NCBI GenBank assembly: GCA_003649205.1
Contig: QMRC01000001.1
Coordinates: 1 to 64,000, forward strand
Length of the DNA: 64,000 nt
DNA from: Thermoprotei archaeon
Lineage (GTDB): Archaea > Thermoproteota > Thermoprotei > Thermoproteales > B15-G16
Direction of reading: 5' to 3'
Each line of letters begins with the position of its first letter. The first letter of the stretch is position 1. Below are positions 1 through 19,713 of the stretch, piece after piece. A program made the position numbers and the translations under genes. The notes under the pieces are model-generated. The model saw only the letters and a program-made list of their open reading frames with translations, ran no database searches and was not told the origin of the DNA.

Positions 1-734
1 CTCCTTAACTCACGAATTCTCCTTCTAAGAGAATCTAGGTCAAGTTCACCCTCATAGTAACGCAGAACAAGCTCGAGCAATCTACGTTTCATAGGATGCA
101 CGGAGTACGCTACGAGATCTCTAATTATCTCTCTTCTCTCAAATGAAGTACCGGCTAGGTACACACTATAGTAGGTCTTCCACCCTCTCGAGACCTTTGA
201 TCTATCTACCTTAATGTAGTAGTTTATAGAGTGCTCTCGAAGCAGCTTTGTAAAGTCTTTAAGTAATCCCTCATCACAGGTTACGAGAAATCGAATCTTA
301 ACGCTATTACTCACCTCTATTCCTCCTTCTGCCTCAAGGCTGCGAATAAGATATCTCACGATCAGTTTTCCCCTCTTTCTCGTGAGGTCAAATACCCACT
401 CTGGTATTCTCTTAGCCCAAAGACGTCCAACATGTTGTTCACCATATGTCGTTGTCACGAGGAATCCGAAGTCTCGTGGTAATCTAAGTTGGTAGAAGTA
501 AGCTTCCCTCCCCTCCATATGGTATACAAACCTTCTCATGTCAGTATCTGGAAGTTTGGATGCATAATTCGTGAACAGAACCTCTATCCACTGTGCACTA
601 AATACGTTAGTAGTCCCAAATTCTAGGCAAAGCTTGTTACCTATTAACCCTCTATACGTCAAATCCGTCACCAGCAACGCCTGCAGTTCAATCAAGATGT
701 CAGCGTATTTTTGCAACAAGTCAACAAACTTCAA
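1..734 (-). CDS. LAGLIDADG homing-endonuclease-like protein (two-motif type), 3' end runs off the window
   Basis: Not in the ORF track. Manual translation from TTG at 734 is open to position 1: MKFVDLLQKYADILIELQALLVTDLTY...KRIPEWVFDL...RYLIRSLEAEGGI...HPMKRRLLE. It shows a degenerate motif 1 (ALLVTDL), the KRIPEW linker, motif 2 (SLEAEGG) and an HPxK tail typical of LAGLIDADG/intein-type endonucleases. Confidence 0.7.
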   Translation of the reverse strand, partial: MKFVDLLQKYADILIELQALLVTDLTYRGLIGNKLCLEFGTTNVFSAQWIEVLFTNYASKLPDTDMRRFVYHMEGREAYFYQLRLPRDFGFLVTTTYGEQHVGRLWAKRIPEWVFDLTRKRGKLIVRYLIRSLEAEGGIEVSNSVKIRFLVTCDEGLLKDFTKLLREHSINYYIKVDRSKVSRGWKTYYSVYLAGTSFERREIIRDLVAYSVHPMKRRLLELVLRYYEGELDLDSLRRRIRELR

Positions 735-761
735 ACCTCGACCCCCGCAAATTCCCTGTTA

Positions 762-801
762 CTTAAGCTGGGTGTAAAAAATCCGCGGTACCCAACTTAA
801 G
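762..801. repeat. Imperfect inverted repeat between the divergent LAGLIDADG ORF and tRNA-half promoters
   Basis: cttaagctgggt (762-773) and acccaacttaag (790-801) are 11/12 complementary. Confidence 0.6.
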
Positions 802-850
802 ACACTATTTAGGGACCCCCTTTCGATTTGAGAACGATCCCTAGAACGAG

Positions 851-866
851 GAAAAAGGTTAAAAAC
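851..866 (+). promoter_or_regulatory. Putative BRE/TATA promoter for the tRNA-Leu 3' half
   Basis: gaaaaaggTTAAAAAc lies about 27-30 nt upstream of the GC-rich leader at 893. Confidence 0.55.
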
Positions 867-912
867 TGAGAAGAAAAGACGAAGTCCAGAAAGCGGCCCC
901 GCCCCGCCGCAG

Positions 913-965
913 TTAGGACCCGCTGGCGTAGGCCTGCGTGGGTTCAAATCCCACCCCCCGCACCA
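913..965 (+). tRNA. tRNA-Leu(TAG) 3' half only (position 33 to CCA), preceded by a GC-rich leader at 893-912
   Basis: T-TAG-GA-CCCGC-TGGCGTAGGCCT-GCGTGGG-TTCAAAT-CCCAC-CCCCCGC-A-CCA gives anticodon, long variable arm, T arm and acceptor strand of an archaeal tRNA-Leu. No 5' half is found in the 890 nt upstream or immediately downstream. Confidence 0.85.
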
Positions 966-1019
966 ATTTCATACCTCCTCTCTACCCAGTAACGTACTTA
1001 GACTTGTAATTCCTGTCTG

Positions 1020-1610
1020 TTGATGAGTATGTTAAGACATCTGCTCATTCGTGCTCTAGCTAGCTTCATTGGTTTCTGCATGATTCTCTATGCATTTAGT
1101 TCTCAGTACGTTGTTGCTCTGACTCTCGGTTCTCTTCTGTATGCTCGGGGTTTGTTACTGAGGTTACGAGGTGTGCATCTAGGTCGTGTACAGAGGATTG
1201 TGCTTAGGGTACTTTGTTTTGTTGGTGTAGTGACCTCTGTACTAGCTACCTTAGGTTTTCTCACTGAGAATAGTTCTCTTAGTTGTGATGTATCCTGTCT
1301 GTGCTTCTGCGGGTACCCTCAGTATCACTGCTACTCCACGGCTATGGTATTGAGGGTTGTACCCTCCACCACCTTAGCTACTAGGTTACCTAGTATCGAG
1401 TTCCCTAAGGTAGGGATATCCCTCATTACGTTACCTCTAGTGATCTTCTCACTCGGCAGTATCGCTACCATCTTCACTCCCGCTCGCTACCTTCCTCTAG
1501 CGAAGGCCATCCTCCATGGTTTACCTACTCTCTTTGTGTTAGTAGAGACAAATACGTTCCTACCACTGATTTTGTGCTGCTTCGTGCTGTATTCATTACT
1601 ACCTCCTTAA
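1020..1610 (+). CDS. Hypothetical multi-pass membrane protein
   Basis: 196 aa with several hydrophobic segments and a Cys cluster; no recognised family. Confidence 0.5.
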   Translation: MMSMLRHLLIRALASFIGFCMILYAFSSQYVVALTLGSLLYARGLLLRLRGVHLGRVQRIVLRVLCFVGVVTSVLATLGFLTENSSLSCDVSCLCFCGYPQYHCYSTAMVLRVVPSTTLATRLPSIEFPKVGISLITLPLVIFSLGSIATIFTPARYLPLAKAILHGLPTLFVLVETNTFLPLILCCFVLYSLLPP

Positions 1611-1697
1611 TCATTGTCTTCTTACTCATTACGATCCATTAACGGGTAACGAATATCGCCTTGAAGGCACTATTATCGTCTAGATAGCAGTTCCTAG

Positions 1698-2966
1698 CTA
1701 CGAGCCTCCTCTCATAGTACGGACTATGTACAGTGCGGTCACTGCAAAGGGTACTACTGCAGCTAGTGTAGTGAGGATTAGCATGTAGAGTACGTCATCA
1801 ATGTACTTTTCCTTGATGTACTCCTTCCTCTGGATTATTGATGACTTCTGAGTGCTCACTACTTTGTGCTGTTGAGTGATACCTTTGCTCGTTATCGTGG
1901 TTTCTTGCTGAATTTGTTTCTGCGTTTTGGTAGGTGATTTGTTGAGTTTTTCTTGACTTACCTTGGTGTTTCTCTCAACTACTTTACCTAGTGTGGTTGG
2001 TGTAATTGATCTCCAGAGGTACTTTGTGGGTGGTCTAGCTAGTGTGAGTGTTACTGTAGTTTCATTAGTTGGTAATTCCTTGAGAGACATTAGGACTAAA
2101 CTACTGGTTATGTATGGTACTGTCGTTACCCTAGTGGTTACGTTACTTAATCTCCACCTCATTACTGCTACTATCGTAGTGGGTATTCTTGGAATTTCTG
2201 TAGTGAGGTTTATGGGCATCTTCACTACCTGAACTCTGGTGTGTGCTGTGAGTGGTATTGAGGATATTGTGATCCATAGCGTGGGTATGTACTTGATCGT
2301 GACTTCTCTACCACCTACGTACTTGAGGTGAATCATTATTTCGTAATTTGTCCAATTTAGTGATGTGGCTATGTCCTCAACGTCCCTACCGAGTAATTTC
2401 TTAAGTTTCTCTCTGAGTTCCTTGAGCAAGTGTGTCAATGCTGTTGCATTTACCTGTATCTGAATACTCAATCTCTTTCTTGGGTACTCTGTGATTGGTA
2501 TTAGCTTGACGCGTATGGTTAAGTCACTTGTTACGTTAAGCAGCAGTACCTGTAACTCGATTCCTGGGGTGTAGTGAATGGTGAAGTTACCTGCTCTATA
2601 GCTACTTCCTACAGGGATAACACTACCTATTTTCAGTGTCTTTACAGATGTGGTTTGGGTAGGTGTTTTTGCCTCGTATTTCAGTACCGTAAGTTCGTAC
2701 ATTCCGGTGGGTAGTGCTGCTGCTACTACAGGGTATTTCGAAGCTACTTGAAGTACGTATTCTCTCCACGATGGTGGGTACTTGGTATTAGCTAAGTCTC
2801 TAATTAGTACGATGTATGTACCTGTGGTATTTCCTTCCTCAATTACTATGTGAATCGTGTAGTAGGTACTTTGTTCTCTCACTAAGCTGTATGTATGGGG
2901 AGTTGTTGTTAGTAGTAGTGTCATGACTAGGACTAGGACTATGGTTCTGTACCTCAAATCCATCAC
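1698..2966 (-). CDS. Secreted, membrane-anchored Thr-rich surface protein
   Basis: N-terminal signal-like hydrophobic stretch, T/Q-rich linker, C-terminal TM helix followed by basic residues. Confidence 0.65.
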   Translation of the reverse strand: MMDLRYRTIVLVLVMTLLLTTTPHTYSLVREQSTYYTIHIVIEEGNTTGTYIVLIRDLANTKYPPSWREYVLQVASKYPVVAAALPTGMYELTVLKYEAKTPTQTTSVKTLKIGSVIPVGSSYRAGNFTIHYTPGIELQVLLLNVTSDLTIRVKLIPITEYPRKRLSIQIQVNATALTHLLKELREKLKKLLGRDVEDIATSLNWTNYEIMIHLKYVGGREVTIKYIPTLWITISSIPLTAHTRVQVVKMPINLTTEIPRIPTTIVAVMRWRLSNVTTRVTTVPYITSSLVLMSLKELPTNETTVTLTLARPPTKYLWRSITPTTLGKVVERNTKVSQEKLNKSPTKTQKQIQQETTITSKGITQQHKVVSTQKSSIIQRKEYIKEKYIDDVLYMLILTTLAAVVPFAVTALYIVRTMRGGS

Positions 2967-3023
2967 CTACTTCGATCTTCATATCTTGTCTCTCGTCAAG
3001 ATTTATATACTCGACCTAGTTTA

Positions 3024-3461
3024 GTGCATTTGGTGGGTATGAGTACTGTAGATAAGAGGTATTTGGAGCTACTGGATAGAGCACTTAGGATGTTACCACC
3101 TAGGACATCTAGTGGAAGGAGATTGGAGGGTATTCAACTTAAGGTGATTGTTGCTGGTAAGAGAACTATGATACAGAACTTCAAGGAGCTGTGCTCAATA
3201 CTAAATAGAGAGCCCTCACATGTAGCTAGGTTTCTACTTAGAGAACTCGCAGCTCCGGGCCACATCGAAGGTGATTCACTCATTATTCAGGGTGAATTCC
3301 CTAGACAGAGACTTATCGACATCTTGACTAGATACATTAAGAACTACGTGATCTGTCCTGTTTGTCAGGCGCCTGACACGATATTGGTTAAGGAGAAGAG
3401 AATGGTGTTCATGGTCTGTACTGCTTGTGGTGCTAAGAGCTCCGTAAAGCCTATGGCATAG
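3024..3461 (+). CDS. eif2b: Translation initiation factor aIF2 beta (likely start ATG 3039)
   Basis: YLELLDRA N-terminus, NFKELCSILNREPSH, CPVC...CTACGA zinc ribbon. Confidence 0.95.
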   Translation: MHLVGMSTVDKRYLELLDRALRMLPPRTSSGRRLEGIQLKVIVAGKRTMIQNFKELCSILNREPSHVARFLLRELAAPGHIEGDSLIIQGEFPRQRLIDILTRYIKNYVICPVCQAPDTILVKEKRMVFMVCTACGAKSSVKPMA

Positions 3462-3469
3462 GCGATTCT

Positions 3470-3781
3470 ATGGAGAGGAGGTTCTACGCAAAACTGCATA
3501 CCACAGGTGGGTACACGATACTAGCTGTCTGTGATAAGGATCTACTCGGTAAGAAGATTATTGATACGAAGAGGAAGTTAGTTGTGTACGTTGATCCTAG
3601 GTTCTATGGTGGTGAGGAGATAACCGAGTCTCAGCTCCTAAGGTTGATTGAGGAGGTTGATGTGGTTAATGCACTCGGTAGAGATACAGTAAACGTTATA
3701 CTGAGTAGGTATCCTCAGTACCGTGAGGCAATTATCTTGATCGGTGATGTACCGCACATACAGATCCTGAGGTTGGAGTAG
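3470..3781 (+). CDS. DUF424 family protein
   Basis: LAVCDKDLLGK...FYGGE...IGDVPHIQ; usual neighbour of NMD3/aIF2beta. Confidence 0.85.
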   Translation: MERRFYAKLHTTGGYTILAVCDKDLLGKKIIDTKRKLVVYVDPRFYGGEEITESQLLRLIEEVDVVNALGRDTVNVILSRYPQYREAIILIGDVPHIQILRLE

Positions 3782-4888
3782 ATGAGTACTGAGAGGTTCT
3801 GTGCTCTTTGCAATAAGACAGGTGTGAAGCTCATTGAGAATCTATGTGAGGAGTGCTATAGGAAGCTTCACCCACTAATTGAGGTTAGAGAAAAGGTGCT
3901 TAGAGTTCCGGTCTGTCGTGAATGCTTGAGCTATGTGTTTAGAGGTAGGTGGACTAAGGTCAAGTACTATAGATCTAGCGAGGAATTTCTACAGGAGGTC
4001 ATTAGTAAGTTCTTGGATCGTGCCATTCAGATTCGTGGAGAAGCTAAGGAGGTTAGGTTCACGGTAGAGAATCCTGAAGTACTTGACCTAAGTGATTTAT
4101 CTCACGTAGCTATTGATGTCATTGTCCAGGTACTTGGTAGGGTTCACCCAGCTATGGACTATTACTGGGAATCTGCTAGGTTTAAGCTACAGATAGTTCC
4201 TGAGATATGTCCAGTATGTCGTGCGGTAGCTCTAAAGAGGGAGAGAGCAATACTACAGATACGAGCAAAGGATAGAGCTTTAACAGCTGATGAAAAGAAG
4301 GAAATACTTAGTATAGTGAGTAGCTTTGTACAGCAACTTCTCAGGAGGGATAGAGAGGCTAGAATTGTTGAGGTTAGAGAGTCAGAGAACTACATCGACA
4401 TAATCTTCCCATCAGCTAGCGTCGTTCGTTCAGTAGCACATAACCTCCGTAAGCACTTTGTATGTGAGGTTCTTGAGACGCAGAAGGTGGTTGGTATGAG
4501 TAGTAGTGGTAGACCTGTGACAAAGGTTACTGTTAGGGTACTACTTCCTCCATTTAGAGAAGGTGATGTCGTAGTTGATAGAGGTAGTAGAGTACTGTAC
4601 GTGGTCTCTATACATGGGAGGAAGGTCAAGGCTCTAGATCTTGAGAGGCTAGATGTGGTGTCTCTTAGTAGAGATGAAGCTATGAACGTCACTAGAGTAG
4701 TCTCTAGAGAGAGCTTTAGCAAGGGCCTAGTGCTATCTGTTCAAGGTGCTTACGCTCAGGTACTCAGATATAGTGACTACAGGACCGTAGAGGTAGCTAT
4801 TTCTCGAAGTGATGTAGTTGAGCCGAAGAAGGAAGTACTTCTCGTGGAGGTAAACGGTAAGACATATATCATACCTCAGGTACTCTGA
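3782..4888 (+). CDS. nmd3: NMD3 family ribosome biogenesis protein
   Basis: Four CxxC pairs (CALC, CEEC, CREC, CPVC) and AILQIR motif. Confidence 0.9.
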   Translation: MSTERFCALCNKTGVKLIENLCEECYRKLHPLIEVREKVLRVPVCRECLSYVFRGRWTKVKYYRSSEEFLQEVISKFLDRAIQIRGEAKEVRFTVENPEVLDLSDLSHVAIDVIVQVLGRVHPAMDYYWESARFKLQIVPEICPVCRAVALKRERAILQIRAKDRALTADEKKEILSIVSSFVQQLLRRDREARIVEVRESENYIDIIFPSASVVRSVAHNLRKHFVCEVLETQKVVGMSSSGRPVTKVTVRVLLPPFREGDVVVDRGSRVLYVVSIHGRKVKALDLERLDVVSLSRDEAMNVTRVVSRESFSKGLVLSVQGAYAQVLRYSDYRTVEVAISRSDVVEPKKEVLLVEVNGKTYIIPQVL

Positions 4889-4905
4889 GCCTAGGTGGTG
4901 TCTTC

Positions 4906-5214
4906 ATGAGTGAAGTTAGGAGAATTAGGTTACCAGCTGAAGGTGAGATGCTGGGTAAGGTAATTCAGCTAGTTGGTGATGATAGAGCTAGAGTGTTCTG
5001 TGCAGATGGTAAGGTCAGAGTATGTAGGATACCAGGTAGGTACAGGAAGAGGATGTGGGTTAGAGAAGGGGATATTGTGCTAGTAGTCCCATGGGATTTC
5101 CAGCCAAATAGAGCAGATATTGTGCATAAGTACGAGAAGAACGAAGTTGATGAACTTAGGAAAGCAGGGTTCAGTGAAGTTTTAGATAAGCTTGAGAGGG
5201 AAGAGATAATCTAG
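4906..5214 (+). CDS. eif1a: Translation initiation factor aIF1A
   Basis: CADGKVRVCRIPGRYRKRMWVREGDIVLVVPWDFQ. Confidence 0.97.
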   Translation: MSEVRRIRLPAEGEMLGKVIQLVGDDRARVFCADGKVRVCRIPGRYRKRMWVREGDIVLVVPWDFQPNRADIVHKYEKNEVDELRKAGFSEVLDKLEREEII

Positions 5215-18384: not shown

Positions 18385-19713
18385 CTACTCAATAATTAGC
18401 TTACCATCAACTACCTTTATCTCGTAGGCACCAGTTTCGTGTCTAGATTTCTTTGCCTTCACTACACTAATCATTCTCCTAACTCTCTGGTTACTAAAGT
18501 CAAGCCACATAGCAATGACGTTATCTACTAGCGCTAAGAGAGGTAAGCTAAGTCCGGTCTCGATGTCCCATAGTAACGTAATAAATGAGGTAGCACCTAC
18601 ACTCCTAAGTAGCTTAATGATCTGTACGAGAGTACTATACCCCTCATTATCGTATGTGATGAGTACATGCTGTGCATTATCTAGAGCAATTCTCAATGGT
18701 TTAGTGTGGTCAATAACCTCACTAAGGTACTTCACGAGTTCTCGAGGTGTATACCTGTAGGTATCAACTGCGACAACTCTGAATCTCTCTTCAATGCTAG
18801 GTACATCAATACCATAGGTAGTCCTAACGTAACTCCATAAGTCCTCAGTAGACTCACCAAAGTCTATGTAAAGTACATTCTCACCGGCTCTAGCACCATG
18901 TATAAGAAAGTGCAGAGCAAGTAAGCTCTTCCCCACACCAGAAGGACCGAGAAGTAGCGTTACAGATCCTCTATACACTCCACCCCCAAGTACCTCATCC
19001 AACTTAGGTACACCAGTGGATACCCTCAGGGAAGTACCGCTATACACGCCTCTAAATGCGTGTGTGGTTAATAGCTCAATACCTCTACTTCCGAGAGTGA
19101 ATTCGTAACGTACCTTCTCAACAACCCTACCCCTAAACTTCTGCACCTTAAGGAACCTACGTACCCTATCTTCCCAATACTCCGTACTAAGCTCCAACAC
19201 AACGTCAGCTAGATACTGCTCGAAACCGAGTCCCGGTACTTCGGAGATGAAGATGGTAGTAGTACCAAGAGGTTTAAGTCCATACACAGTAAATACCTGT
19301 AATGCAGCTCTAGCCTCTCGCTCAGGTACACCAGCAGTTAGAGCAGTTACACTATCAATAACCAGCCTAGAAGCACGATACTCACCTAACTTCTCTAAAA
19401 TAGCTGCAAAGACCTCTTCAAGACACTTAACTTCACGAGGTATAGGTACGTGAATGTAGTAGAATAAGTTCTTCCTCTCAAGTTCCTTAAAGTTCATGCC
19501 CATACTAGCCATGTGCTCGAGAAACTCATCCCTCCTCTCATACGTACTCACGTAGAGACCTACCTCTCCCCTCAACGCTCCATGATATATGAACTGTGCT
19601 GCGAGAGTAGTCTTACCTGTACCTGAAGCACCTTTAATGAGAATTAGTGAACCTCTAGGAATAGCAGCAAAAAGATCATCTACAGTACGCACCTCTAAGG
19701 TATGAGAACACAT
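18385..19713 (-). CDS. Two-domain KaiC/RAD55-family ATPase
   Basis: Walker A GASGTGKT and GPSGVGKS, VIDS, STGVPKLDEVLGGG, KFRG. Confidence 0.9.
   Translation of the reverse strand: MCSHTLEVRTVDDLFAAIPRGSLILIKGASGTGKTTLAAQFIYHGALRGEVGLYVSTYERRDEFLEHMASMGMNFKELERKNLFYYIHVPIPREVKCLEEVFAAILEKLGEYRASRLVIDSVTALTAGVPEREARAALQVFTVYGLKPLGTTTIFISEVPGLGFEQYLADVVLELSTEYWEDRVRRFLKVQKFRGRVVEKVRYEFTLGSRGIELLTTHAFRGVYSGTSLRVSTGVPKLDEVLGGGVYRGSVTLLLGPSGVGKSLLALHFLIHGARAGENVLYIDFGESTEDLWSYVRTTYGIDVPSIEERFRVVAVDTYRYTPRELVKYLSEVIDHTKPLRIALDNAQHVLITYDNEGYSTLVQIIKLLRSVGATSFITLLWDIETGLSLPLLALVDNVIAMWLDFSNQRVRRMISVVKAKKSRHETGAYEIKVVDGKLIIE

Follow-up and report, generated by a model that had tools for sequence, protein, structure and literature searches.

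Split tRNA genes have been regarded either as ancient relics of a two-piece state or as recent accidents, a question debated since their discovery. In this study, we analysed the first 64 kb (64,000 nucleotides (nt), here called the window) of contig C1 (QMRC01000001.1) from the genome bin of a Thermoprotei archaeon (GCA_003649205.1, here G000; 2.07 Mb in 31 contigs, 43% G+C, 93.8% complete), base 1 of the window being the contig end. Close to this end, a gene for a LAGLIDADG-type endonuclease stands head-to-head with the 3' half of a tRNA-Leu(UAG) gene, and a matching 5' piece was found at the end of a second contig, C10. We lean towards reading the locus as a functional split tRNA-Leu(UAG) gene, whose intervening DNA would carry a live, divergently transcribed LAGLIDADG homing endonuclease gene.

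Among the closest described systems are split tRNAs with neighbouring halves. In the tRNA-Asp of Aeropyrum pernix and Thermosphaera aggregans and the tRNA-Lys of Staphylothermus, the halves lie close together and are transcribed separately (Chan, Cozen & Lowe, 2011, PMC3218864). As is proposed for the present locus, their leaders form a splice helix and the split looks recent when compared with the intact genes of relatives (PMC3218864). The spacer of A. pernix measures 121 nt, five host genes lie between the Staphylothermus halves, and the accessible text of that report mentions no endonuclease gene; the cases described there are split at position 37/38, whereas the split position here is 32/33 (PMC3218864). 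The same report proposes "viral or other mobile elements" as the origin of the splits, leaving the element unnamed in its accessible parts, and quotes a range of 11-129 nt for archaeal tRNA introns (PMC3218864).

A second comparison lies in the same archaeal order, with Caldivirga maquilingensis. Its split and tri-split tRNAs, together with a transposition of tRNA introns in Thermoproteales, were reportedly described by Fujishima and colleagues in 2009 and 2010. Tri-split tRNAs and the Thermoproteales intron transposition are summarised in PMC10714607. The Caldivirga leaders reportedly resemble the introns that relatives carry at the same position, as does the end of the leader here. In contrast to the arrangement proposed for the present locus, the Caldivirga halves are dispersed, and in the accessible text no protein gene is implicated and the mechanism of intron movement is left open (PMC10714607). 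In Caldiarchaeum subterraneum, a 1.8-kb insertion separates a tRNA 5' fragment from the rest of the gene, the locus is heterogeneous in the population, and a mobile element is blamed (Sugahara et al., 2012, PMC3293823). That element encodes a recombinase, has six genomic copies and sits at tRNA-Thr according to the accessible text (PMC3293823), whereas the LAGLIDADG gene described here is single-copy and no recombinase occurs among its flanking open reading frames (ORFs).

Endonuclease genes are also known from within the bulge-helix-bulge (BHB) introns of archaeal rRNA genes, with which our locus shares archaeal hyperthermophile hosts and, in the reading favoured here, an intervening sequence in a stable RNA that is processed by the tRNA splicing endonuclease (PMC4496867 and PMC8598171, as far as accessible). 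The enzymes of these introns (I-DmoI, I-Tsp061I, I-PorI) are, like the protein of the window ORF, monomeric and two-domain, with about 200-250 residues. Here, however, the host is a tRNA, the ORF is antisense with its own promoter-like box, and a separate promoter-like element precedes the downstream exon. In bacteria, tRNA genes can contain group I introns that reportedly also carry homing endonuclease genes, e.g., in Synechocystis tRNA-fMet. They likewise place an endonuclease gene in an intervening sequence of the anticodon loop, but are self-splicing ribozymes. All 39 of the 39 reported archaeal group I introns are in rRNA genes, according to the accessible text of PMC6125680. A full-text search, with subscription journals mostly outside its reach, found no report of a LAGLIDADG gene situated within a tRNA intron of an archaeon or separating the halves of a tRNA.

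The two genes lie on opposite strands, and the gap between the ORF start (734) and the first leader base (893) is 158 nt, close to the 160 nt given in the original prediction, a first reading made from the letters of the window. The features of this region are the following:

1-734, minus strand: LAGLIDADG-type endonuclease gene, with a TTG start at 734-732 and 244 codons visible, the C-terminal end lying beyond the contig end.
708-712, plus strand: T5 run, the sole plus-strand run of at least five T within 1-900.
761-768, minus strand: TATA-like box, GCTTAAGT in the minus-strand reading, 27-34 nt upstream of the ORF's TTG (read from the sequence).
851-866, plus strand: promoter-like element, consisting of a purine-rich run and then GGTTAAAAAC, some 27-42 nt ahead of the leader.
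893-912, plus strand: leader of 20 nt, of which the 18 nt at 893-910 are purely G/C, with CCGC at 907-910.
913-962, plus strand: 3' exon of tRNA-Leu(UAG), nt 33-73, with the anticodon TAG at 914-916 (alignment by eye).
963-965, plus strand: encoded CCA end; CCA is likewise encoded in the genome's other tRNA-Leu genes.

The 3' exon holds U33, the anticodon, the 3' strand of the anticodon stem, a long variable arm, the T arm, the 3' acceptor strand and the discriminator A. Positions 913-965 match the complete tRNA-Leu(GAG) gene of this genome in its 3' part with 98% identity, and the other genomic copies of this stretch are complete Leu genes. ARAGORN called no tRNA gene in positions 1-5000. The Rfam tRNA model gave a partial match at 922-962 with 20.2 bits, under its gathering score of 29 bits, as expected because the molecule is a half; Rfam had no other match in 1-3000. 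In the 60 nt upstream of 40 tRNA genes, TATA-like hexamers cluster at -44 to -32 with purines before them, and the element at 851-866 has the same form and distance as in those 40 genes. This motif evidence indicates that the 3' piece has a promoter-like element of the tRNA type. The box at 761-768 may resemble the tRNA promoters of this genome as well, and its placement would give the ORF a leaderless mRNA. A scan for sigma-70 promoters and terminators, which is of bacterial type and unsuited to archaea, found nothing. Archaeal RNA polymerase terminates at oligo-T. The T5 run at 708-712 is a possible stop for transcripts that enter from the left and, lying on the tRNA strand, argues together with the second promoter against one long precursor.

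The leader is unusual in composition, its 18-nt run being the longest G/C-only run in the 2.07-Mb genome. Runs of this kind with at least 14 nt number 15 genome-wide; apart from the leader, 13 belong to the stems of tRNA genes or, in a single case judged by eye, to an rRNA-like contig end, and the last is in an unidentified repeat. Paired by hand, CCGC (leader positions -6 to -3) matches nt 27-30 of the 5' piece (GCGG) in 4/4 positions. Precisely two bases separate it from the junction, the spacing that a BHB motif demands of its central helix, and it is followed by a 3-nt bulge containing the splice site. Put into the same register by hand, the short intron of tRNA-Leu(CAG) in the relative G020 makes three of four pairs and a 5-bp inner helix. 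In relatives, Leu isoacceptors other than this one have short introns at 32/33, the position of the exon junction here, and the last bases of the leader are similar to the 3' ends of these introns. A variant strain differs by 13 changes in the 158-nt spacer and by none in 893-944, a weak indication since the latter stretch is short. Two paralogues of the splicing endonuclease are present in the genome; a two-subunit splicing endonuclease has been tied to the cleavage of non-canonical introns (PMC5829648, in its accessible part). An exact 12-16-mer complement of the leader was found nowhere in the genome besides the site itself, and a complement with up to three mismatches was absent from both G000 and the same-genus genome G001, which fits a trailer lying in the contig gap. 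The 24-nt leader-exon junction had no match in the metagenome contig collection.

ARAGORN found complete tRNA-Leu genes with the anticodons CAG, TAA, CAA and GAG, and no tRNA-Leu(TAG) gene in the 93.8%-complete assembly. Since no Leu codon is used more often than CTA (34.2 per 1000, counted over 426 open frames of at least 400 codons), tRNA-Leu(UAG) must be made. The last bases of contig C10 are nt 1-17 of a tRNA-Leu. Before them stands a promoter-like element of the tRNA type, again with purines and a TATA-like box at the distance seen in the 40 tRNA genes. The orthologous piece in G001 (contig C141; 96% identity over 810 nt) also lies at a contig end and continues to nt 31, where the contig folds back on itself. 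The 5' piece reads GCGGGGG...GCGGG, and pairs 7/7 with the acceptor strand and 5/5 with the anticodon-stem strand of the window; each complete Leu gene fits just one of the two stems. Judged by this pairing, the piece at the C10 end and the piece in the window belong together. The tRNA half of the original prediction can thus be described as a 3' half of tRNA-Leu(UAG) with a promoter-like element, and the 5' half that it had supposed exists, as a matching piece in compatible orientation. Among the relatives with an intact tRNA-Leu(TAG), to which the earlier reading had looked for comparison, G002, G022 and G034 carry the gene uninterrupted, and the split therefore appears to be derived. One further ARAGORN call, a "Leu(AAG)" on C4, was rejected as a Leu tRNA, having no long variable arm and a Met-type acceptor stem. 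This locus (C4:26137-26304, L032) contains at least two intervening sequences, 168 nt in all, and scores 17.5 bits with Rfam.

Both pieces are on the plus strand, the 5' piece at the 3' end of C10 and the 3' piece 0.9 kb into C1, counted from its 5' end. These orientations are the arrangement expected if C10 precedes C1, and by a rough estimate about 1.5% of random placements would give such a layout. Judging from the contig ends, C10 and C1 are probably adjacent. In the other families of the order that were compared, gene order has been shuffled too much for synteny to place C10 by C1.

The endonuclease gene is a minus-strand ORF that runs from TTG 734 to position 3 (244 codons) and is open at the contig end. 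The earlier reading had seen in it two LAGLIDADG-like motifs; these are LQALLVTDLT at residues 17-26 and IRSLEAEGG at residues 130-138. By tblastn, the ORF is single-copy in the genome. Among 5.8 billion clustered proteins, its only matches are itself and P0002, a protein of 237 amino acids (aa) with 45% identity over residues 6-224. Because P0002 ends two residues beyond window residue 224, little of the ORF is likely to be missing. A profile of these two sequences gave five matches in total among 1.84 billion representatives, and two of them, P0003 (E=1.8e-7 to the profile) and P0005 (E=7.1e-4), pass Pfam LAGLIDADG_3 with 41.9 and 39.2 bits. The AlphaFold model from a five-sequence alignment has a mean predicted local distance difference test score (pLDDT) of 91.9 and a predicted template modelling score of 0.89, and its topology is an alpha-beta-beta-alpha-beta-beta-alpha unit that occurs twice. 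Foldseek against the PDB gave 117 chains at E<=1e-3, the best 40 or so of which are all of the LAGLIDADG fold (endonucleases, one maturase, and WhiA at rank 28). The leading matches are PI-SceI, E-DreI, I-SceI, I-Tsp061I, the bI3 maturase and I-DmoI, the five endonucleases all at a Foldseek probability of 1.00; in these alignments, sequence identity to solved LAGLIDADG enzymes is only 11-16%. The predicted model thus bears out the two-domain LAGLIDADG fold that had been suspected from the motifs, and by this model the ORF encodes a genuine two-domain LAGLIDADG protein.

In the model, D24 comes after helix 3-22 and E136 after helix 123-135. We take these residues to be the metal-binding acidic positions of the LAGLIDADG family. 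D24 is invariant in 3/3 of the closest sequences, and position 136 is E or D (D in the homologues). Contigs of the variant strain, from other samples, cover 83-944. Eleven of the 12 ORF differences listed are synonymous and at third positions (15 further differences over 1-1500 lie outside this listing), which argues that the endonuclease gene is under purifying selection and is no decaying relic. The kept acidic positions and the purifying selection speak against the suggestion that a degenerate nuclease acts as a regulator or maturase, and we know of no need for a maturase in BHB splicing. On the modelled structure, the protein is presumably an active homing nuclease.

Parallels were found in the same genome. 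The initiator tRNA-Met is encoded 240 kb away in two colinear pieces 1792 nt apart (G000:C1:303869-305737, L030), with a trailer and a leader that are perfectly complementary over 15 bp, and with a second TATA-like box. Between these halves there are three sense ORFs, one of them with a LAGLIDADG-like motif, and more LAGLIDADG-type ORFs occur on both flanks, one at a Pfam E-value of 1e-5. Among these flanking ORFs are a frameshifted pair (L030 14-645) and, just upstream of the 5' half, an ORF of 387 aa. In a search of this genome, PF14528 gave 10 matches at E<=1. Leaving out two in one intein-like frame of 1194 codons and one with E=0.34 in a frame of 819 codons, five of the seven remaining LAGLIDADG ORFs lie within about 0.9 kb of a tRNA gene or tRNA piece. 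One family of ORFs is present at five places:

C14:276-1487, C2:158476-159693, C2:247752-248804, C15:42096-43286 and C6:87920-88966: two-motif LAGLIDADG ORFs of 350-400 aa.

Three members of this family lie 56-220 nt from tRNA-His, tRNA-Ser and tRNA-Val genes. Before each of the C15 and C6 copies there is a long G+C hairpin, with the common element GGGGTGGGGGACAAGGGACTTCA upstream. ARAGORN also called long introns in tRNA-Trp (2001 nt) and tRNA-Asp (400 nt), both of which were rejected as spurious since they span ordinary protein genes.

In relatives, a three-sequence profile run class-wide on 120 genomes had matches in three other genomes at five loci. Four of these five lie inside or against tRNA genes, in keeping with the linkage to tRNAs that the original prediction implied. 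In G020, tRNA-Thr(CGU) and tRNA-Phe(GAA) are interrupted at about 26/27 by approximately 0.8 and 1.4 kb; their identities were assigned by comparison with the tRNAs of our genome, ARAGORN having mis-called both as Pro:

L039 (G020:C2), 1165-2038: tRNA-Thr(CGU) locus, intron with a sense LAGLIDADG ORF.
L035 (G020:C11), 777-2262: tRNA-Phe(GAA) locus, with a sense LAGLIDADG ORF and an in-frame TAA upstream.

The two introns have homologous starts and terminal helices of 11-12 bp, and the sense LAGLIDADG ORF fills most of each. The homologues in G026 and G108 abut complete tRNA genes. No tRNA is in view at the fifth match, the third G020 paralogue (G020:C4, L038). Outside these genomes, P0002 as a query had no match in the genome contig collection, and a profile of the homologue alignment had none in the metagenome contig collection; a second alignment matched among genome contigs only an intein in a metagenome-assembled genome of Aenigmatarchaeota and, doubtfully, a stretch of 28 residues.

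In the split-gene reading that we favour, the 5' piece at the C10 end would be transcribed from its own promoter and supply nt 1-32, and the 3' piece (913-965) would be transcribed from the tRNA-type promoter at 851-866 with its 20-nt leader. The leader would base-pair both to the last part of the 5' exon and to a trailer complementary to it, forming a BHB junction at 32/33. This junction would be cut by the two-subunit splicing endonuclease, and the exons would be joined by an RNA ligase, presumably RtcB. The DNA between the pieces would hold a free-standing endonuclease gene, divergent from the 3' half and antisense to the tRNA. As to its history, a homing-endonuclease cassette may have entered the 32/33 intron site of a once continuous gene. 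Being long and antisense, the cassette would have caused co-transcription to fail and left the 3' part reliant on a second promoter, the outcome being a split gene with neighbouring halves. The adjacency, the trailer, the splicing, the nuclease activity and the causal role of the cassette are all steps that we infer. A more specific proposal is that the tRNA-Leu(UAG) gene, until then continuous or with a short intron, was converted by a live homing endonuclease gene into two neighbouring halves that are transcribed independently, and that this happened recently enough for alleles with and without the cassette to occur side by side in natural populations; this we put forward tentatively and as rather doubtful. 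In three samples, the contigs with ORF and leader reach about 36-55% of the depth found for the adjoining downstream flank, and in X2 the summed depth over ORF positions 301-400 was 50-57 versus 69-78; such depth ratios are only a hint, since strain variants split contig depth.

Several observations weigh against the split-gene reading. The ORF stop, the trailer and the rest of the 5' exon lie outside the assembly, beyond the contig end. None of the Logan contigs from the likely source run and three other runs extends past position 1: the longest start at 1 (X1) or 83 (X2), and a source-run contig covering 1-369 ends at base 1. No flanking genes are shared within 1.5 kb of the tRNA-Leu genes at six loci of relatives, and the orthologues of the flanking genes are far apart in five relatives. 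In the same-genus G001 (71% complete), the 5' piece is present and the ORF and leader were not seen. On the side that can be read, no clear outer helix of a strict BHB motif is seen, and no public RNA runs holding the stretch were found. Concerning the protein, the Pfam check on LAGLIDADG_3 that the original prediction had proposed came out in favour of the homologues P0003 and P0005, and not of the window ORF itself (E=0.011, 16.4 bits, under the 22.5-bit cut-off). A profile search of the PDB sequences gave no LAGLIDADG match and three irrelevant ones at E~0.3. P0002 is the only close homologue, and its source genome is not among the 401 genomes examined at phylum level. The ORFs of the relatives match the window ORF weakly (E of 1e-4 to 1e-5 per genome), and BLASTP gave no direct match between the window ORF and the G020 intron ORFs, which are linked to it only through P0003. 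Finally, the ORFs known from rRNA BHB introns, like those in the tRNA introns of G020, have the sense orientation, whereas the window ORF runs antisense to the tRNA.

Of the other explanations, the one that survives best is that the tRNA is truly split with its halves far apart, as in Nanoarchaeum and Caldivirga, while the endonuclease gene merely docks beside tRNA sequences, had no part in the split and is located elsewhere than between the halves. The habits of these genes lend it some weight: many LAGLIDADG-like ORFs of this genome adjoin complete tRNA genes, three of the five ORFs near a tRNA gene or piece (C14 and C2 twice) lie beside and not inside a tRNA, and so do the G026 and G108 homologues. 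The neighbourhood of C10 and C1, moreover, is deduced. Nevertheless, the contig ends that carry the two pieces are compatible with each other, ORFs of this kind separate the neighbouring halves of the initiator tRNA in this very genome, and a contig break inside the ORF, 0.9 kb from the half, fits one hard-to-assemble locus. Therefore, we consider a distant arrangement of the halves unlikely.

Alternatively, the pieces could be the exons of one gene whose single BHB intron measures some 1 kb or more; transcription would start at the 5' promoter and run across the antisense ORF, and splicing would occur in cis. The tRNA genes of G020, with their introns of 0.8-1.4 kb readable by ARAGORN as single genes, provide a precedent, and the halves would be colinear if C10 precedes C1. 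For this explanation to hold, the box before the leader would have to be unused, or only the divergent partner of the ORF promoter, although it matches tRNA promoters in form and distance. The sense-strand T5 run before the leader also speaks against a single long intron, and a long sense transcript would collide with the expression of the antisense ORF. Taken as a whole, this cis-spliced gene appears quite improbable to us.

Integrating elements leave copies of the 3' part of a tRNA gene that start near the anticodon loop. The 3' piece could accordingly be the leftover attachment-site copy of such an element, in which case the C10 end would belong to an intact tRNA-Leu(UAG) gene and the element would have brought the LAGLIDADG gene as cargo. 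The gene at the C10 end can be read over just 17 nt in G000 and 34 nt in G001, so that it could be complete, and a 3' piece of this kind, from tRNA-Thr, does exist at about C9:18600. The latter fragment (tRNA-Thr(CGU), G000:C9 ~18540-18620, L033) looks from its sequence like an attachment-site remnant of an integrated element, and the ORF beside it resembles the N-terminal domain of a phage integrase (by eye, no family search having been run). At the C9 piece, however, there is no G+C leader or promoter, whereas the window piece has a G/C-only leader, a tRNA-type promoter and a 4/4 match in the BHB register, of which the C9 piece has none. No integrase family was found in the 10 flanking ORFs (9 kb to the right and the last 3.9 kb of C10), and the break in the G001 contig coincides with the exon border, falling directly behind nt 31. 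An attachment-site origin thus seems very improbable. A self-splicing intron was rejected, since Rfam shows no group I or group II intron in positions 1-3000.

Beyond the locus itself, the flanks consist of housekeeping genes: the right flank encodes aIF2-beta, NMD3, a RIO kinase, a KH protein and ArgRS, and the flank on C10 a Clp1-type P-loop protein and an HD protein. The gene for the Clp1-type protein (polynucleotide kinase family; L031 1777-3084) lies 0.8 kb from the 5' piece, which is probably a coincidence. To the right of the tRNA half, a plus-strand ORF (1020-1610) encodes a hydrophobic protein of 196 aa and a minus-strand ORF (1698-2966) a protein of 422 aa with many N-x-T/S sites, neither of which has a Pfam family. 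The region of the 422-aa ORF has 72% DNA identity to the same-genus G001, against 96% at the C10 end. Elsewhere in the assembly, C17 (22.6 kb) begins with the reverse complement of the sequence at its other end, and C21 (10.4 kb, 39% G+C) has the same sequence of about 40 nt at both ends, as in a circular element. C3 has two overlapping tRNA-His genes in a palindrome (145645-145784), and its contig ends are inverted copies, possibly an assembly artefact.

In summary, an endonuclease gene stands beside, and probably between, the halves of an indispensable tRNA gene, and its predicted target is the continuous form of the same gene. The locus is a concrete candidate for the mobile element behind recent tRNA splits, and suggests that selfish endonuclease genes can break tRNA genes into pieces. 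The homologous G020 introns, at the same position (26/27) in tRNA-Thr and tRNA-Phe, point the same way. Together with the initiator-tRNA locus and these introns, it suggests how tRNA introns could move between genes in Thermoproteales, and the published range of 11-129 nt for archaeal tRNA introns would need revising. Genes of this kind are missed by tRNA finders and annotation pipelines, as shown by the tRNA for the commonest Leu codon, which went uncalled here. If the proposed role of the cassette is true, homing endonucleases would be a hitherto unrecognised force that both splits tRNA genes and spreads tRNA introns from gene to gene in Thermoproteales.

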